Assembly: GCF_056712565.1 (NCBI RefSeq)
Contig: NZ_CM160072.1
Direction: 5' to 3' (one strand)
Length of the DNA stretch: 64,000 nucleotides
A program made the translations under genes and the position numbers. Of the stretch, positions 36,864 through 51,136 are shown piece after piece (within the stretch, counting starts at the first letter, position 1; each line of letters starts with the position of its first letter). The notes below the pieces were generated by a model. The model was not told the origin of the DNA. It ran no database searches and worked only from the letters and a program-made list of their open reading frames with translations.

Positions 36864-38144
36864 CTATAAATTGCCGAGGGGGAACAAGGCCGGGAGCTGC
36901 GACAGCAAATACAAAATAAGTCCAATACAACCGCCAACCAGCGTACCGTTGACACGGATAAACTGGAGATCTTTGCCGATATTTAACTCGATTTGCCGCG
37001 ACATATCCCGTGCGTCCCAGCTTTTTACCGTGTCGCTGATATGGCGAGTCAGGAATGCGGAAAACTCAGGCGCAATGCGGTGTGCGGCTTGTTCCAGATG
37101 ACCATTTAACGACGCCCGCAAGGCATCATCGGCAATTAACGTTTCGCCAAACCATTGACCCGCCCGCGCGATACGTTCTTTCACACGAGAATCTTCACTG
37201 TTGATATCCGCATTCAGCCATTCCCGTAAATCCCCCCACAATTCACTGAGATAGCGGTTAAAAGCTTCATCTTCTTTCAGATAGCTTTTTACGGCATCGG
37301 CTCGCGCTGCCATTTCCGGATCGTTTTTCAGCTTGTCGATCAGGGCAAAAGTGGCGCGATCAAACGCATGGCGGATCTGATGCGCACGATCGCGGCTGAT
37401 ATCATCAAGCAAAGAATTCACCGCGTCAGAAACCAACTCCGCGCTATGTTCGCCCAGCCATTCAGTGGGCAAAATTTTGGCTTTCAGTGGATGCTCGCTC
37501 TCCAGCCAGCGAACAATTTGCTGGGCGATAAACTTGCGCGATTTATCGCGCTGGAGAAGGGCGATCAACTGTGCGATCAGCGTATCGAGCAGCACCTGAT
37601 GACGATCGTTTCTGGTCATGCTCTCCAGAATCAGTGCGCTGGTGCCGGAAAGATCGACCTTATCGATCGCCCGGTGGACCGCGCGCTTAAGCAGGCGCTG
37701 AATACGCGCATCATCGGTCAGTTCGAGAAAACCGCTCATGATCTGTAACAGATGCTGACCAACGCGGCGGGCGTTCTCCGGCTGACTAAACCAGTTGCCA
37801 ATCAACAACGCCGGTTCGTGACGTCGAATCAATGCCACCAGCGATTGGGTATCGAGAAATTTTTCCTGCACGAACTGGCCGAGATTTTCGCCAATCCGGT
37901 CTTTATTACGCGGGATAATCGCCGTATGACGAGAAATGATCGGAATCGGCACGCGGCGAAACAGCGCCACCACCGCAAACCAGTCCGCCAGCGCGCCGAC
38001 CATCGCCGCTTCAGCAATCGCCTTCACACCGCTCACCCAAAAATTGGGCGGCAAAAACAGCGTAACGACAAAGGTAGCAGCGGCGATAAGCAGTAAAGAG
38101 AGAGCCAACATTTTGGCGCGTCTGAGTTCAATGAGTTTATTCAT
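36864..38144 (-). CDS. yjiN: Inner-membrane protein YjiN (DUF445)
   Basis: ORF 36864-38180; start set at [16 protein letters not shown] (426 aa). Confidence 0.75.
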
Positions 38145-38328
38145 ATCGTAAGAATAGAGCCTGACGGTAAGAAAACGCAAAAAGCGAGATATCTTCCATA
38201 AAAATGTATCGTTTGCAGAAGAATAAAAATAGCCTGGAAACCGCCTCGGGGAATAGGAAATAGCCAGGTGTGAATGGCTTTGTTAGTCGCTAAAGTTGGG
38301 CCATCTTATCTACAGGTGACGGATCGCC

Positions 38329-39249
38329 ATGACAAACTTTACGACCAGCACGCCGCATGACGCATTATTTAAATCCTTTCTCACACACTCTGACACCGCG
38401 CGGGATTTTATGGAGATCCACTTACCCAAAGATTTACGTGAACTGTGCGATCTCGATAGCTTAAAACTGGAATCCGCCAGCTTTGTCGATGAAAAATTGC
38501 GGGCGCTACATTCCGATATTCTGTGGTCGGTAAAGACCCGTGAAGGCGATGGCTATATTTATGTAGTGATTGAACATCAGAGCCGTGAGGATATTCATAT
38601 GGCCTTTCGTCTGATGCGATATTCCATGGCGGTGATGCAGCGCCATATCGAACATGATAAACGCCGGCAGCTACCACTGGTCATCCCGATGCTGTTTTAT
38701 CACGGTAGCCGTAGCCCTTATCCTTGGTCTTTGTGCTGGCTGGACGAATTTGCCGACCCAACTACCGCACGGAAGCTTTATACCGCCGCGTTCCCGCTGG
38801 TGGATATCACTGTCGTGCCAGACGACGAGATTGTGCAGCATCGCAGAGTCGCCCTGTTGGAGTTGATCCAAAAGCATATTCGCCAGCGCGATCTGATGGG
38901 GCTTATTGACCAACTGGTAGTATTACTGGTTACAGAGTGTGCTAATGACAGCCAGATAACTGCGCTGTTAAATTACATTTTACTGACTGGTGATGAAGCG
39001 CGTTTTAATGAGTTTATCAGTGAAATTACCCGTCGACTGCCACAACAAAGGGAGCGAATAATGACGATTGCAGAGCGAATTCATAATGATGGATATATAA
39101 AAGGGGAACAGCGCATTCTTCGATTGTTTTTGCAGAATGGGGTAGATCCTGAATGGATACAAAAGATTACCGGACTTTCGGCAGAGCAAATACAGGCATT
39201 AGAGCAGCCCTTGCCTGAGCGTGAGCCTTATTCATGGCTCAAGAGCTAA
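38329..39249 (+). CDS. rpnD: Recombination-promoting nuclease RpnD (PD-(D/E)XK, Rpn/YhgA-like); intact here
   Basis: 306-aa uninterrupted ORF with Rpn-family N-terminus ([25 protein letters not shown]). Confidence 0.8.
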
Positions 39250-39267
39250 TCAGAGACGGATGACAAA

Positions 39268-39376
39268 CGCAAAGCTGCCTGATGCGCTACGCTTATCAGA
39301 CCTACATTATCTCTGCAATCTATTGAATTTGCGCGGTTTGTAGGCCGGATAAGGCGTTCACGCCGCATCCGGCATG
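39268..39376. repeat. BIME-like pair of REP elements
   Basis: GCCTGATGCGCTACGCTTATCAGACCTACA and TGTAGGCCGGATAAGGCGTTCACGCCGCATCCGGCA in opposite orientation. Confidence 0.65.
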
Positions 39377-39654
39377 AACGAAGCACACTTTACGTGGCGA
39401 TGATAGTGACCTTCCTGCACCAACCTTGCCGCCGCCATTTATGTGAACGGTACATTAACGCTGCTGGTGGCAGCAAATGCAGACCCGGTGCGTGTTACAG
39501 CAGGTGAGAGATGAACGGTTAAAGGATATTGGGTTATGCAGGGAGGATGTGGTGTAATGGAGAGAGTCCTTCACGAAACGATGGGATTTATATGTCACCT
39601 CGTCAGATAAGGGGTTATTATTGCGAAATCATCGCTTCACGGAAAGACGTCAGA

Positions 39655-41748
39655 ATGAAAGCTACAGAAGCCCGCCTACTCGATTTTTTAAAACGTTCGC
39701 AGCAGTTCGTTATTACCATTTATCAACGGACTTATTCATGGACAGAACAACAATGTCGGCAACTTTGGGACGACATCATTCGTGCCGGAAAGCGTGACGA
39801 TATATCAGCGCATTTTATCGGTTCGGTTGTTTATATTGAGCAGGGGTTGTATCAGGTTTCTGGTATTTCTCCGTTACTGGTCATTGATGGTCAACAAAGG
39901 CTGACGACCGCAATGTTGCTGATTGAGGCTTTATCGCGTCATCTTGGCGAAGACGAAGTTTTTGATGGCTTTTCAGCAATGAAATTGCGTAATTATTATT
40001 TACTCAATCCTTATGAGTCCGGCGAGAAAGGATTTAAATTACTGCTGACCGAGACTGATAAAGACAGTTTGCTGGCGTTAATAAAACAAAGACCAATGCC
40101 AGAAAACTATTCCCATCGAATAATGGAAAACTTTACTTTCTTTGATGAACAAATTACCAAACTCGGTGATGACTTGATCCCCTTATGTCGTGGGTTAGCA
40201 AAGTTATTAATTGTCGATGTGGCGCTTAATCGTGGTCAGGATAATCCGCAACTGATTTTTGAAAGTATGAACTCCACCGGTAAGGCATTAAGTCAGGCCG
40301 ATCTGGTGCGCAATTTTATTCTGATGGGCCTCGAACCAGAGCATCAAACCCGGTTGTATGAAGATCACTGGCGTCCAATGGAAGTCGCGTTTGGTCAGCA
40401 AGGTTACAGCGAATATTTTGACAGTTTTATGCGTCATTATCTGACGGTAAAAACGGGGGAGATCCCTCGGACAGATGAAGTCTATGAGGCATTTAAACTC
40501 CATGCCCGCAGCCAGAGTGTTGCTGAAAAAGGCGTAGATCGGCTGGTTGAAGATATTCACATCTACGCGGAGTATTACTGTGCAATGGCATTGGGAAAAG
40601 AAAGTGACAAATCGCTTGCTACGGCTTTTCAGGATTTGCGCGAGTTAAAGGTCGATGTGGCGTATCCTTTCTTACTGGCGCTTTATCATGACTATAAAAA
40701 TGGCGTTTTGTCTCACGAAGATTTCCTGAGCATAATTCGTTTAATTGAATCTTATGTTTTCCGCCGTGCAGTATGTGCGATTCCGACAAATTCTCTTAAC
40801 AAGACGTTTGCTACTTTTTATAAGGTCATTAATAAAGAAAAATATCTGGAAAGTATTCAGGTACATTTTCTGAATCTGCCTTCATATCGTCGTTTCCCCA
40901 ACGATGATGAATTTAAACGGGAATTAAAAGTTCGTGATCTCTATAATTTCCGTAGTCGCAGCTACTGGTTACGACGACTGGAAAACGATAAACGCAGAGA
41001 GCGCGTGGAAGAGTTTACGATTGAGCATATTATGCCGCAGAACGAAAATTTGTCGGCTAAATGGCGTGAAGAGCTGGGAAGTGACTGGCAACGCATTCAT
41101 AAAGAACTGTTGCATACGTTGGGGAATCTCACATTAACGCGCTATAACTCCCGCTACAGTGACAGACCTTTCGCGGAAAAACGCGATATTGAAGACGGCT
41201 TTAAACATAGCCCGCTCTATTTGAATATCGGTCTTGGACAGTGCGAAAAATGGGATGAAGCAGCCATTCGCGCCCGTGCAGATCGTCTGGCCGATCTCGC
41301 GGTTCAGGTCTGGCAAGCGCCTGCTCTTCCTGAAGAGGTTTTAGCTGTTTATCGGGCGCAGCCGGAGAACAAAACCAGTTACAGCCTGAGTGATTATCCT
41401 TTTCTTGCTGATGGTTCGCATAGCCGGGTGTTATTTGATCATCTTCGCGATGAAGTTATGCGCCTGGACGCAGGGATCACGCAGGAAGTTTTAAAGCTCT
41501 ATATTGCGTTTAAAGCTGAAACGAATTTTGTTGATGTTGTACCGCAAAAAAGCCGACTGCGGTTGTCGCTTAATATGCAGTTTCATGAACTGGTCGATCC
41601 GAAAGGTATTGCCAAAGATGTGACAAATGTTGGGCGATGGGGCAATGGTGATGTGGAAATTGGTTTCAGTGACCTCGCACAACTTCCTTACATTATGGGA
41701 TTAATTCGTCAGGCATTTGAAAAACAGATGGAGAGCGCGTTGGTATAA
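39655..41748 (+). CDS. DUF262/DUF1524 (GmrSD-like) protein, candidate type IV restriction / defence nuclease
   Basis: ORF 39529-41748; start set at MKATEARLLDF (697 aa). N-terminal DUF262 signature (YQRTYSW ... LVIDGQQRLTT) and C-terminal HNH-like DUF1524 signature (EHIMPQN ... LGNLTL..YN). Confidence 0.8.
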   Translation: MKATEARLLDFLKRSQQFVITIYQRTYSWTEQQCRQLWDDIIRAGKRDDISAHFIGSVVYIEQGLYQVSGISPLLVIDGQQRLTTAMLLIEALSRHLGEDEVFDGFSAMKLRNYYLLNPYESGEKGFKLLLTETDKDSLLALIKQRPMPENYSHRIMENFTFFDEQITKLGDDLIPLCRGLAKLLIVDVALNRGQDNPQLIFESMNSTGKALSQADLVRNFILMGLEPEHQTRLYEDHWRPMEVAFGQQGYSEYFDSFMRHYLTVKTGEIPRTDEVYEAFKLHARSQSVAEKGVDRLVEDIHIYAEYYCAMALGKESDKSLATAFQDLRELKVDVAYPFLLALYHDYKNGVLSHEDFLSIIRLIESYVFRRAVCAIPTNSLNKTFATFYKVINKEKYLESIQVHFLNLPSYRRFPNDDEFKRELKVRDLYNFRSRSYWLRRLENDKRRERVEEFTIEHIMPQNENLSAKWREELGSDWQRIHKELLHTLGNLTLTRYNSRYSDRPFAEKRDIEDGFKHSPLYLNIGLGQCEKWDEAAIRARADRLADLAVQVWQAPALPEEVLAVYRAQPENKTSYSLSDYPFLADGSHSRVLFDHLRDEVMRLDAGITQEVLKLYIAFKAETNFVDVVPQKSRLRLSLNMQFHELVDPKGIAKDVTNVGRWGNGDVEIGFSDLAQLPYIMGLIRQAFEKQMESALV

Positions 41749-41794
41749 CGTGGCGAATAATACCCGGTAGCACTGGCGCTACCGGGTCAATGTA

Positions 41795-42136
41795 TCAGGC
41801 GACTTTCTGTTTACCCGCAATCACCCCAATAAACTCCTGCACCTGCCTTTGTTTACGCGCCGACAGCTTGCACACCTGGCGAAGCGACTGCATCAGTTCG
41901 CTCTCTTCGGCGGCGGGGGGTTGGGCGGTGAGGACAATACAGCCTTCCATCACTTTGACATCTATCGCCGTGCCAGTGGCAAAACCGGCGGCTTCCAGCC
42001 ACTGACCTTTCAGGGTGATGGCGGGAATACGGCTGTAATCCGGGTAGCGACTCGCATAACTCACGGTTAATTGACGGTTATTTGCCGGGGAGACTTCTGC
42101 TTCGAACGGTTGTGCAATAGAATGCGTGTCAGTCAT
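41795..42136 (-). CDS. symE: SymE, SOS-induced toxin-like protein (113 aa)
   Basis: ORF 41795-42193; start set at [52 protein letters not shown], matching SymE. Confidence 0.85.
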
Positions 42137-42200
42137 GATTACTATTCTCCATAAATAGTGATTGTGATGAGCGGTGCGGGTGTGTTGGCGCACATCCGCA
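42120..42200 (+). ncRNA. symR: Putative SymR antisense sRNA overlapping the symE 5' end (approximate)
   Basis: SymR is known to be encoded antisense to the symE translation start; plus strand here includes GCGGGTGTGTTGGCGCACATCCGC hairpin. Ends not determinable. Confidence 0.35.
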
Positions 42201-42364
42201 TCGCGCTAAATACCTGGATATATCATCAGTAAATACAGGGAAAGTCCAGCTAAAAATAGAATAAAATGGGAAGTTTCTGGAACGATTTAAATATATTTGT
42301 GTGAGTTATGATTGGCGTAAAAATAATAAATAGCGCACCAGAAAGGTGCGCCAGAAAATAATGA

Positions 42365-43732
42365 TCAGGACTTTTTACGCGAGGCTTTTTTACCCCCGCT
42401 GGCTGCGCGTTCAGCTTTGATTTTCTCCAGCAACGCGGCGGCGCTGTTTTCACCGCTGATTAATTCCGGGTTTTCGGCCCGCCACTGGGCGGTGAGTTCA
42501 CCACGGAACGCTTTTGCCAGGATGGATTGCGTCAGATTGTTGACGCGGGCTAAGGCGTTGTTGACCTGTTTTTCTATTGTGTCGGCGTAGGCGAAGAGTT
42601 GCTCGACGCGGCGAACGATTTCAGCTTGTTCGGGAAGGGGGGGAACAGTTATTGGGTATGCAATTAATTTCTGTGCATTAATATTTGATTGACTGACCCC
42701 ATCAGATTTAACTGAATAGCAATATTGTCTCCCCAAAATGCTATTTAAATGGTAGTTAAGATAGTCAGGGTTTAAATCAGGTAAACATTGAACCCTAATC
42801 AAATAACCTGCATAAATAGCTGGTTGCTCTGATTTATATATGGCTGTTTTCCCGACAAGTTCAGGACTATTTGTACGATTGAATAATACATCATTGTACT
42901 CAAGTTTATACTTTTCAATTTCTATGGTATCTGACGTATAGACTAGATCCGTCCAGTCCAACTTTCCTCCCTGAAGATTGCCCATTCTTAATACAGGAAT
43001 GAGTCCTTCTTTATTAGACTTAGATGACGTTCCGTAACTTGGTTTTTTTATAAACTCCCCAAGTTTGCCTTCTCTCCACCCAGACAGGCTTGAATTATCT
43101 CTCCAGTCTTCAGTTAGTTTTCCTCTCACCGCTGCACCCAGAACCGCCTGACGAAAACGTTTCAGGATTTGTGGGATTTGCTCAAGACGTGCTTTGGTGC
43201 TGTCTACCTGTGCCAGCAGCGTATCGAGTTTTTCAGCGATGATTTTTTGTTCGGCAAACGGTACAAGAACAAATGGTAATGTTTTCGCAGAACTACCAGA
43301 AATTTCTTTAAAAGTTGTTCCTGTGCCCATTTCCTCTGCAATATGTCTGATGTTGCGGAGAAAGTAATATGCATAATCAGGAAAAATGTCTGAAGGAAAA
43401 GCAAAACTTTTGAAACCCTGGTTAGTCGCAATCTCATTTGCAGCAATAGCAACATATCCAATCGGTGCCCGGCTACTAAAAAGTATAGTGCCTTTGGGCA
43501 TTAGTTTTGCTGAACAAGAGGAATAGCCTAGTGTAGTTAAATCTCTGGCACCATGTGAGATATATTTCTCTTTATAACCGCTCAAATCGGCAGGCGTAAG
43601 CCAGGCGACTCCCTCACCCGAAGGTGCAAAATTTTCAGCGACTCCCGATTTTGGTGTCCCACCAGAGATGACATCAGCAATGTCGCCTATTTCAATCTGT
43701 TCCCACCCCTCCGGCAATTTCCCAGCACTCAT
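42365..43732 (-). CDS. hsdS: Type I restriction-modification specificity subunit HsdS (family IA), 455 aa
   Basis: N-terminus MSAGKLPEGW, central conserved region (EQKIIAEKLDTLLAQVDSTKAR...RFRQAVLG) and C-terminus (EQAEIVRRVEQLFAYADTIEKQVNNALARVNNL...) match EcoKI-type HsdS as I remember it; the two variable regions differ. Confidence 0.85.
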   Translation of the reverse strand: MSAGKLPEGWEQIEIGDIADVISGGTPKSGVAENFAPSGEGVAWLTPADLSGYKEKYISHGARDLTTLGYSSCSAKLMPKGTILFSSRAPIGYVAIAANEIATNQGFKSFAFPSDIFPDYAYYFLRNIRHIAEEMGTGTTFKEISGSSAKTLPFVLVPFAEQKIIAEKLDTLLAQVDSTKARLEQIPQILKRFRQAVLGAAVRGKLTEDWRDNSSLSGWREGKLGEFIKKPSYGTSSKSNKEGLIPVLRMGNLQGGKLDWTDLVYTSDTIEIEKYKLEYNDVLFNRTNSPELVGKTAIYKSEQPAIYAGYLIRVQCLPDLNPDYLNYHLNSILGRQYCYSVKSDGVSQSNINAQKLIAYPITVPPLPEQAEIVRRVEQLFAYADTIEKQVNNALARVNNLTQSILAKAFRGELTAQWRAENPELISGENSAAALLEKIKAERAASGGKKASRKKS

Positions 43733-45318: not shown

Positions 45319-45394
45319 TGTGAGTTCCGTAAATTAAACAACGGCCCGCATTGTTTGGGGCCGCAGAAGAAGAAATTGCCGAGGGTAATATACA

Positions 45395-45518
45395 CAAAAT
45401 CATTCAGGTTGCATCAAGGCGGCAAGTGAGTGAATCCCCGGGAGCGTACAGAAGTACGTGACCGGGGTGAACGAGCGCAGCCAACGCAGAGGCAGCCTGA
45501 AGGATGAAGTGTATACGT
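45395..45518. repeat. ERIC/IRU-like repeat in the hsdR-hsdM intergenic region
   Basis: GTGAATCCCCGGGAGCGTACAGAAGTACGTGACCGGGGTGAACGAGCGCAGCCAACGCA resembles the ERIC consensus including the ERIC1R/ERIC2 primer regions. Confidence 0.6.
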
Positions 45519-50179: not shown

Positions 50180-51136
50180 TTACTTCCTCAACCCCGCAAA
50201 CGCCGCCCGAATCTCATCCTCCGGCAGCTGAATCCCGATAAACACCATCGTGCTATGCGGTTTTTCATCGCCCCACGGCCTGTCCCAGTCGGCGCTGTAG
50301 AGGCGCTGGACGCCCTGGAACAGCAGGCGGTTAGGTTCGCCGTCAATCCACAGCATCCCTTTGTAACGCAGCAGTTTATCTGCCGATTCCAGCAGCAGGT
50401 TTTCCATCACGCGGGAAACTTCGCTGATATCTACCGGGTAATCCAGTTCCACCACAATCGACGAAATATCGTTTTGTTTGTCCGCGATAAAGTGAAAACG
50501 TGGCTTGGTGCTGACGACGTTTTCTTCCAGCATAAAACCGTTGGTGTTGAACAACAGGCCCAGGTCGATGTCGCCGTGGGTGACGGTGTAGACCGGTGCA
50601 CGGGCGTTGATGCGCGCCAGGCGTTCACGCAGTTTTTCTGCTTCGCCTGCGACGTCGGTTTTAGTCAGCAGAATACGGTCGGCGTAGCCAACCTGGGACT
50701 GGGCGATGGTGAACTGGTTCATCTGCTCATCGGCATGTACCGCATCCACCAGCGCAATCACGCCATCCAGCAGGTAACGCTGGCATAAAATCTCATGGGA
50801 GAAAAAGGTCTGAATAATCGGGCCGGGATCGGCCATGCCGGTGCATTCAATGACCAGACGGTCGAACTGAATATTGCCCTTGTCGAGATTATCCAGCAGG
50901 TCGAGTAGGGCGTCTTCCAGCTCGTTGGAGCGCGAACAGCAGATGCAGCCGTTGGTCAGCGTTTTGATCTGCGTGGCGCGGTCGCCAATCAGTTGATCAT
51001 CAACGGAGACTTCGCCGAATTCGTTTTCAATCACGGCAATCTTGTAGCCGTGTTGTTCGTTAAGAATATGGCGCAGCAGGGTGGTTTTTCCTGCGCCTAA
51101 AAAACCGGTGAGTAGGGTAACTGCAATCGGGTTCAT
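50180..51136 (-). CDS. yjiA: COG0523 GTPase YjiA (G3E family)
   Basis: ORF 50180-51220; start set at MNPIAVTLLTGFLGAGKTTLLRHIL (P-loop), 318 aa. Confidence 0.85.
   Translation of the reverse strand: MNPIAVTLLTGFLGAGKTTLLRHILNEQHGYKIAVIENEFGEVSVDDQLIGDRATQIKTLTNGCICCSRSNELEDALLDLLDNLDKGNIQFDRLVIECTGMADPGPIIQTFFSHEILCQRYLLDGVIALVDAVHADEQMNQFTIAQSQVGYADRILLTKTDVAGEAEKLRERLARINARAPVYTVTHGDIDLGLLFNTNGFMLEENVVSTKPRFHFIADKQNDISSIVVELDYPVDISEVSRVMENLLLESADKLLRYKGMLWIDGEPNRLLFQGVQRLYSADWDRPWGDEKPHSTMVFIGIQLPEDEIRAAFAGLRK

Follow-up and report, generated by a model that had tools for sequence, protein, structure and literature searches.

Where does the symE-symR toxin-antitoxin segment of Escherichia coli end and the exchangeable restriction cassettes around it begin, and is the segment itself anything other than an ordinary module? 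The question is posed by a stretch of 64,000 nucleotides, analysed here as a whole (the window), in which symE faces a GmrSD-family gene. The symE product is an SOS-induced type I toxin, a protein of the AbrB/MazE fold. Our answer, in which we place high confidence, is that the window carries an ordinary symE-symR module, that a constant block of ~440 bp containing it lies between two independently variable defence slots, and that the GmrSD cassette extends as far as the symE stop codon and includes a hairpin of its own.

The gene order in the window, yjiN, rpn, gmrSD, symE, hsdSMR, mrr and yjiA, is that of the E. coli immigration control region (ICR); the enteric ICR was reportedly described as a defence island by Sibley and Raleigh in 2004. 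Collinearity with E. coli strain 7/2 is 99.7-99.9%, and the annotated order there is yjiL-yjiM-yjiN-rpn-gmrSD-symE-hsdS-hsdM-hsdR-mrr-yjiA-yjiX-btsT-tsr. Both anchor genes of the ICR are present (yjiN at 36864-38180, and yjiA at 50180-51136 through 99.9% collinearity with strain 7/2), as are type I and type IV restriction genes (the hsdSMR type IA equivalogs, mrr and gmrSD), and other genomes carry alternative cassettes in this slot. The features flanking symE are as follows.

38329-39249: rpn, an Rpn/YhgA-like recombination-promoting nuclease gene (PF04754, E=3.9e-86)
39396-39472: yjiR remnant (blastn against the O157:H7, CFE299 and Nissle loci)
39465-39557, plus strand: yjiS 3′ remnant, the left edge of the cassette slot (blastn against the same three loci)
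39655-41748, plus strand: GmrSD-family gene, 697 aa, Type IV restriction-like (Pfam, PADLOC)
42331-42353, minus strand: intrinsic terminator after hsdS, a 9-bp stem followed by TTTATTATTT, which parts the hsd operon from symE (terminator scan)
42365-43732, minus strand: hsdS, type IA (EcoKI family) restriction-modification, preceding symE in the same orientation (PF01420, NF007278 equivalog; annotation of strain 7/2, itself 99.7% identical to the window)

The GmrSD-family neighbour

The gene facing symE is a single uninterrupted reading frame with zero internal stops. It encodes DUF262 and DUF1524 in one polypeptide (PF03235, GmrSD_N, 114 bits; PF07510, GmrSD_C, 94 bits) together with DUF5655, an EHIMP His-Me motif is visible in the alignment of homologues, and across its entire length the product shares 76% identity with a 699-aa homologue, itself intact, that is encoded in another E. 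coli ICR. We start the gene at 39655 (697 aa), in agreement with RefSeq and with the 699-aa homologue; the ATG at 39547 would give 733 aa. [quoted passage not shown] It shares DUF262/GmrSD_N, DUF1524/GmrSD_C and the EHxxP His-Me motif with the characterised enzymes Eco94GmrSD, BrxU and SspE, but it is only distantly related to them and has the extra C-terminal DUF5655; the best match to a PDB sequence covers the N-domain only (E=2.4e-12). The family is characterised in addition by NTP-stimulated cleavage of modified DNA (5hmC/glc-5hmC/5mC), an activity that the window product may share.

A closer counterpart has been described in strain APEC O1, where the ICR holds a transposase-like gene, an endoribonuclease gene, hsdS, hsdM, hsdR, Mrr and a GTPase gene, together with APECO1_2080, a 733-aa GmrSD homologue that is 24% identical to Eco94GmrSD (He et al. 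2015, PMC4437046). As far as the published description of APEC O1 allows the comparison, the order is that of the window, including the transposase-like gene (Rpn), SymE, type I hsdSMR, mrr and yjiA, and 733 aa is the length obtained from the ATG at 39547. From that description we infer that the window gene is the orthologue of APECO1_2080.

RefSeq treats DNA identical to this reading frame in strains 7/2 and 104 as a split pseudogene, PGAP dividing it into a ‘DUF262 partial pseudogene’ and a 387-aa coding sequence (L002 4356-6449 and L011 448-2649 among our loci). We reject this interpretation, since there is no internal stop and the alignment to the homologue runs end to end; the split looks like an annotation artefact that spread from the frameshifted O157:H7 allele. 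In that allele, a 1-bp deletion opposite window position 40455 truncates frame 1 after 293 aa, and the O157:H7 Type IV gene is probably inactive. The 699-aa homologue comes from strain TUM14697 (L012 4001-6100) and is an intact second form of the ICR GmrSD gene, allelic or paralogous, with 76% amino acid identity. There it lies at the yjiA end of the ICR, with brnA and a Fic-family gene beside it, and is transcribed divergently from a different type I system.

Between rpn and gmrSD sit the yjiR and yjiS 3′ remnants, and a 26-aa ‘hypothetical protein’ annotated in strain 7/2 is the yjiS remnant. Because only remnants are left, the window strain has lost yjiR and yjiS relative to GmrSD loci of the O157:H7 type. 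Two further sequence elements were seen nearby. Downstream of rpn, 39298-39379 gives sub-threshold Rfam matches (naRNA4, 38.2 bits; ES036, 33.4 bits) and contains REP-like palindromic elements. In the hsdM-hsdR spacer, an imperfect palindrome of ~124 nt (45388-45511) gives a sub-threshold match to V_AS5 (44.9 bits; gathering 96), and it looks like an ERIC/IRU repeat element.

The symE-symR module and its control

41795-42136, minus strand: symE coding sequence, 113 aa (open reading frame; PF08845, NF010128 and comparison with K-12)
42131-42207, plus strand: symR, 77-nt cis-antisense RNA (Rfam RF01809)
42090-42130, plus strand: symR promoter zone inside the symE reading frame (identity to K-12)
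42214-42229, minus strand: LexA box, CTG-N10-CAG, reading TACTGATGATATATCCAGGT on the minus strand, in the symE promoter region (pattern match)

On the minus strand, symE runs from an ATG at 42136-42134 to a TGA at 41795-41797. The product is identical to K-12 SymE at 107 of 113 residues (6 differ), and it scores 76.6 bits against PF08845 SymE_toxin (E=1.6e-21; cutoff 29) and 229 bits against the NCBIfam equivalog NF010128, ‘endoribonuclease SymE’ (cutoff 132). The antisense RNA matches the whole of its Rfam model (95.8 bits against a gathering threshold of 61, E=1.9e-18, model positions 1-77 of 77). The matches for symE, symR and the neighbouring GmrSD-family gene are database-level and far beyond chance. 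The initial annotation had described symE as intact and the symR region as conserved over the symE start, and both descriptions hold: the reading frame is complete and above both curated cutoffs, the Rfam match is full length, and the 41 nt immediately 5′ of SymR are identical to K-12 throughout (41/41), with 0-2 differences across the nine other strains. The promoter of symR has been mapped and mutated in K-12, inside the symE reading frame (Kawano 2007, PMC1891008), and an embedded promoter is predicted at the same place in the window, where, judging by its position 8-13 nt ahead of the SymR 5′ end, the hexamer TAGAAT (42118-42123) is the putative -10 element.

SymR begins 3 nt inside the symE reading frame and is complementary to the AUG (42134-42136) and to the Shine-Dalgarno sequence GGAG, the complement of 42147-42150. 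Two hairpins are predicted for the segment (-41.1 kcal/mol, z=-5.96), and both are kept in 10/10 alleles compared (-35 to -44 kcal/mol); 69 of the 77 nucleotides match K-12 and 8 positions differ. The LexA box at 42214-42229 (CTGGATATATCATCAG) is conserved in 10/10 strains, K-12 differing by one spacer base.

In K-12, symE (yjiW) is regulated by LexA, SymE is degraded by Lon, and SymR, a stable RNA made constitutively and present at about ten times the level of symE mRNA, blocks symE translation and lowers the level of the mRNA (PMC1891008). The toxicity of over-produced SymE and its repression by SymR and Lon come from K-12 only (PMC1891008). By extension from that strain, LexA bound at 42214-42229 would repress transcription of symE, while SymR, abundant, stable and transcribed from the promoter within the reading frame, would pair perfectly with the symE 5′ UTR, Shine-Dalgarno sequence and AUG and block translation. 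With both controls in force, SymE would be expected to build up only after prolonged SOS induction. The mechanism is established in K-12; the near-identity of the sequences suggests that SymE toxicity, SymR synthesis and LexA control apply in the window strain as well.

The biochemical activity of SymE is disputed. The original assignment was to an RNA-cleaving protein (Kawano 2007, PMC1891008); Thompson 2022, as cited in PMC11894785, reportedly saw no endoribonuclease activity and found that SymE instead binds DNA non-specifically and condenses the nucleoid.

Several minor observations concern variation within the module. Within the conserved block, polymorphism relative to the nine other strains is highest in the SymR segment (42131-42207), with up to 11/77 differences against ~3-4% over most of the symE coding sequence, and the changes cluster in the 5′ hairpin beside the AUG. 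In REL606 the predicted first stem is shifted in register. In the Nissle allele the tip of the second hairpin (the equivalent of 42185-42190) is inverted from TTGGCG to CGCCAA, its exact reverse complement, and the stem is kept. In the LexA-box spacer, K-12 alone has T at window position 42217, where the other nine strains have G; on the minus strand this gives TACTGATGATATATACAGGT in K-12 and ...ATCCAGGT in the window, and the CTG and CAG arms are unchanged.

The ends of the constant block and the slots beside it

The limits of the block were located by aligning the window with nine E. coli genomes, which together represent four types of downstream neighbour, and by counting differences segment by segment.

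41819-42257: constant core of the symE-symR block, common to every junction class compared (10-genome alignment, megablast end points)
41798-41818, minus strand: last seven symE codons, AGKQKVA, common to the GmrSD, mcrBC and helicase types; SSKTPR in the yjiS type

At the downstream end, the point at which identity with the window begins depends on the neighbour. It is 41799 in K-12 and REL606, where mcrB lies downstream and is co-directional, the symE stop being TAA instead of the TGA of the window and the last codon GCG instead of GCC. It is 41795 in KY178 and Z1323CEC0014, which have a large convergent DEAD/DUF1998 helicase gene, and 41819, or 21 bp inside symE, in Nissle, CFE299 and JNE112863, where yjiS abuts symE. 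In the yjiS class, 13/21 nucleotides of the tail segment 41798-41818 differ, as against 0-2/21 in the other classes, and SymE ends in SSKTPR and is 112 aa long. At the upstream end, homology to genomes with type IB (O157) or type ID (Nissle) systems stops at about 42257-42262, just past the LexA box. The megablast end points across the larger collection fall at the same places, with left ends at 41795/41799 or 41819 and right ends at 42261-42267 (query positions 520 and 962-968). The constant block is thus 41819-42257; three of the four classes share a longer block that reaches the symE stop codon. The extent first proposed for the retained segment, 41795-42240, was a good approximation to this; the alignment that had been suggested as a check on the symE-proximal junction places the break at the symE stop codon (41795-41799) or, against yjiS types, at 41819.

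The upstream slot is occupied by the type I hsd operon, of family IA in the window and IB or ID elsewhere. The downstream slot is bounded by the stop codons of the convergent genes yjiS and symE, its left edge at or within ~12 bp of the yjiS stop, and it holds GmrSD (window), yjiT-helicase-mcrCB (K-12 and B) or yjiT-helicase, or is empty. Among 5,426 complete E. coli genomes, a collection biased towards O157:H7 and laboratory derivatives of K-12 and B so that the counts are not population frequencies, the 3′ neighbour of symE is GmrSD in 1,286, yjiS in 920, mcrB in 595 and the helicase in 60. About 2,470 of the 5,426 have no megablast match to the symE query, and they therefore lack symE at this locus.

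It had been correctly noted that the cassette next to symE in the window differs, GmrSD standing in place of the mcrBC of the K-12 layout, and that symE is the last gene before a convergent GmrSD-like gene 46 bp away; the spacer, 41749-41794, is exactly that long. The implication that this cassette is unusual was mistaken. GmrSD-symE is the commonest junction in the collection, and the K-12 layout, with mcrBC beside symE, is a minority state among the complete genomes sampled. The arrangement is moreover already known. SymE/SymR of K-12 (YjiW/RyjC) is the same gene pair in the same position downstream of hsdS, and symER sequences have been aligned from K-12, O157:H7, CFT073, UTI89, Shigella and Salmonella (Kawano 2007, PMC1891008). 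A 2025 review in EcoSal Plus reports E. coli ICRs in which a GmrSD homologue takes the place of McrBC, counts symE symR among the ICR toxin-antitoxin systems, and describes an ICR that, like the window, is variable between yjiN and yjiA and combines type IA, IB or ID hsd genes with Mrr, McrBC or GmrSD (PMC12707154). Between them, these two accounts and that of He et al. (2015) mean that the retention of symE/symR beside different cassettes was known before this study. The present findings carry little weight beyond the annotation of this strain, whose SOS-regulated SymE/SymR module and ICR-type GmrSD gene are both intact. What they add is modest: a base-level map of the block ends (41795-41799, 41819 and 42257-42262), whereas the review gives no base-level breakpoints; the junction frequencies; and the cassette-specific hairpins in the symE 3′ UTR.

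Outgroup sequences bear on the two forms of the symE tail. A scan with a degenerate ITLKGQWLE pattern found 22 loci, of which seven from Enterobacteriaceae were compared and 15 (Lachnospiraceae, cyanobacteria and others) were left out. Escherichia whittamii has a helicase-type junction and the AGKQKVA tail, and the tails of Pseudocitrobacter, Kluyvera and Salmonella enterica subsp. diarizonae are AGKTRKVM, ANKPRKRKA and AGSK. These sequences suggest that the AGK-type tail is ancestral; with AGK- or ANK-type tails in the outgroups, the SSKTPR tail of the yjiS-type junction is probably derived.

Two individual junctions deserve mention. The K-12 helicase-mcrC spacer and its hairpin (L001 3354-3409) are 93% homologous to the KY178 helicase-symE spacer (L004 4959-5000), a similarity that persists as far as the symE stop codon; it thus appears that mcrCB was inserted, or lost, precisely between the hairpin and symE. 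Breaks within symE also occur as rare secondary events: in strain ZYB62 (L010 4959-5297), a deletion fuses yjiT-derived sequence to symE at about codon 99, giving a 112-aa SymE with the novel tail TAPHQWQFHCHQV that overlaps a pseudogene.

Proposed exchange of cassettes, a possible link to restriction and the symE-gmrSD spacer

A rival idea is that symE-symR is functionally coupled to its neighbours, either as an addiction module for the hsd/Type IV island or because restriction damage, by way of the SOS response, leads to growth arrest. We consider this improbable. Whether the type I family is IA (window and K-12), IB (O157) or ID (Nissle), symE immediately follows the final hsd gene in the same orientation, as it also does in E. 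whittamii, Kluyvera, Pseudocitrobacter and another enterobacterium; yet such linkage could mean no more than that both reside in a recombination hot spot. SymE-family genes have been associated with restriction-modification operons, and symE is SOS-regulated (Kawano 2007, PMC1891008), but symE persists in CFE299, where hsd has decayed, it stands without an adjacent hsd gene in S. enterica subsp. diarizonae, and ~2,470 of the 5,426 genomes have no symE at the locus. A more elaborate version, to which we give the same low probability, is that symE-symR is a functional hinge, retained immediately behind whatever type I system is present, in which an SOS-induced, nucleoid-condensing SymE would turn restriction self-damage or loss of the island into arrest, and the 440 bp would serve in addition as the crossover site for independent swaps of the type I and type IV systems.

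Cassettes may be exchanged by homologous recombination, conserved flanks such as symE providing the crossover zones, and selection on the symE reading frame would make breaks pile up at its stop codon. The two SymR 5′-stem alleles, GAUUAC and AACUGC, each occur with GmrSD (window and O157) and with mcrBC (REL606 and K-12), so that all four combinations are found. Because the alleles are mosaic relative to cassette type, they fit homologous recombination in the conserved flanks, and from this mosaicism, seen in 10 sequences only, we infer that homologous recombination is the likely mode of exchange; recurrent independent insertions could also have produced the mosaic of alleles and cassettes.

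Another possibility is that a site-specific or nuclease-promoted process, in which rpn (38329-39249) could take part, directs the GmrSD, mcrBC and helicase cassettes to the point immediately behind the symE stop codon. Three unrelated cassettes do end within 5 bp of one another (41795-41799), although sharp breaks at a stop codon are expected from selection on a conserved flanking reading frame alone, and breaks are found at 41819 and 41840 as well. An Rpn-family gene (PF04754, E=3.9e-86) does stand at the other end of the slot, and the GC content of gmrSD looks foreign (0.437, against 0.553 for symE), but the repeat search and the annotations show no target-site duplications, inverted ends or integrase, and the symE allele mosaic fits ordinary homologous exchange. 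We judge targeted placement, too, to be improbable. The search for flanking direct or inverted repeats over 39250-41850 gave only short matches at chance level, and a mobile-element signature for the GmrSD cassette was rejected, there being no repeats or mobile-element ends in that interval.

The spacer between symE and gmrSD contains the following features.

41749-41794: convergent spacer, 46 bp, part of the GmrSD cassette (segment difference counts)
41762-41787: hairpin with a 10-bp stem (fold prediction)

In the spacer, 6/49 alignment columns differ between the window and O157:H7, which is of the GmrSD type, as against 32-36/49 for all non-GmrSD types. Being homologous in O157:H7 and not in the K-12/B, helicase or yjiS types, the spacer therefore belongs to the GmrSD cassette. 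The initial annotation had placed the cassette boundary between 41748 and 41795, and homology to K-12 does stop at the extreme edge of that interval, but the whole of the spacer is cassette DNA. Read literally, that interval would put the breakpoint inside the spacer and make part of it an ancestral symE 3′ UTR kept with symE, a reading that brackets the point where K-12 homology stops but is very improbable and largely refuted by the alignment: 41749-41794 does not align with K-12, B, KY178, Z1323 or the yjiS types and matches O157:H7 throughout, identity starts only at 41799 (K-12) or 41795 (KY178), and a different hairpin follows the symE stop directly in each cassette type.

The hairpin in the window lies 7 nt past the symE stop codon and 13 nt past that of gmrSD, with predicted folds of -20.2 and -20.8 kcal/mol (z about -2.7). 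AUUAUU follows it on the symE strand and the gmrSD strand has no U-run, so that it is more plausibly the terminator of symE. A strict scan of the spacer for intrinsic terminators called it on neither strand, and we regard it as a probable symE terminator that lacks the canonical U-run.

A hairpin stands 7-12 nt beyond the symE stop codon in every cassette type, non-homologous from one type to the next, and in the ‘empty’ genomes yjiS and symE converge across ~42 bp with one hairpin. The symE 3′ UTR and terminator hairpin of the window accordingly differ from those of K-12, because the downstream cassette is the convergent GmrSD and not the co-directional mcrB. Such cassette-specific 3′ UTR hairpins could alter symE mRNA stability or antisense read-through from one strain to another.
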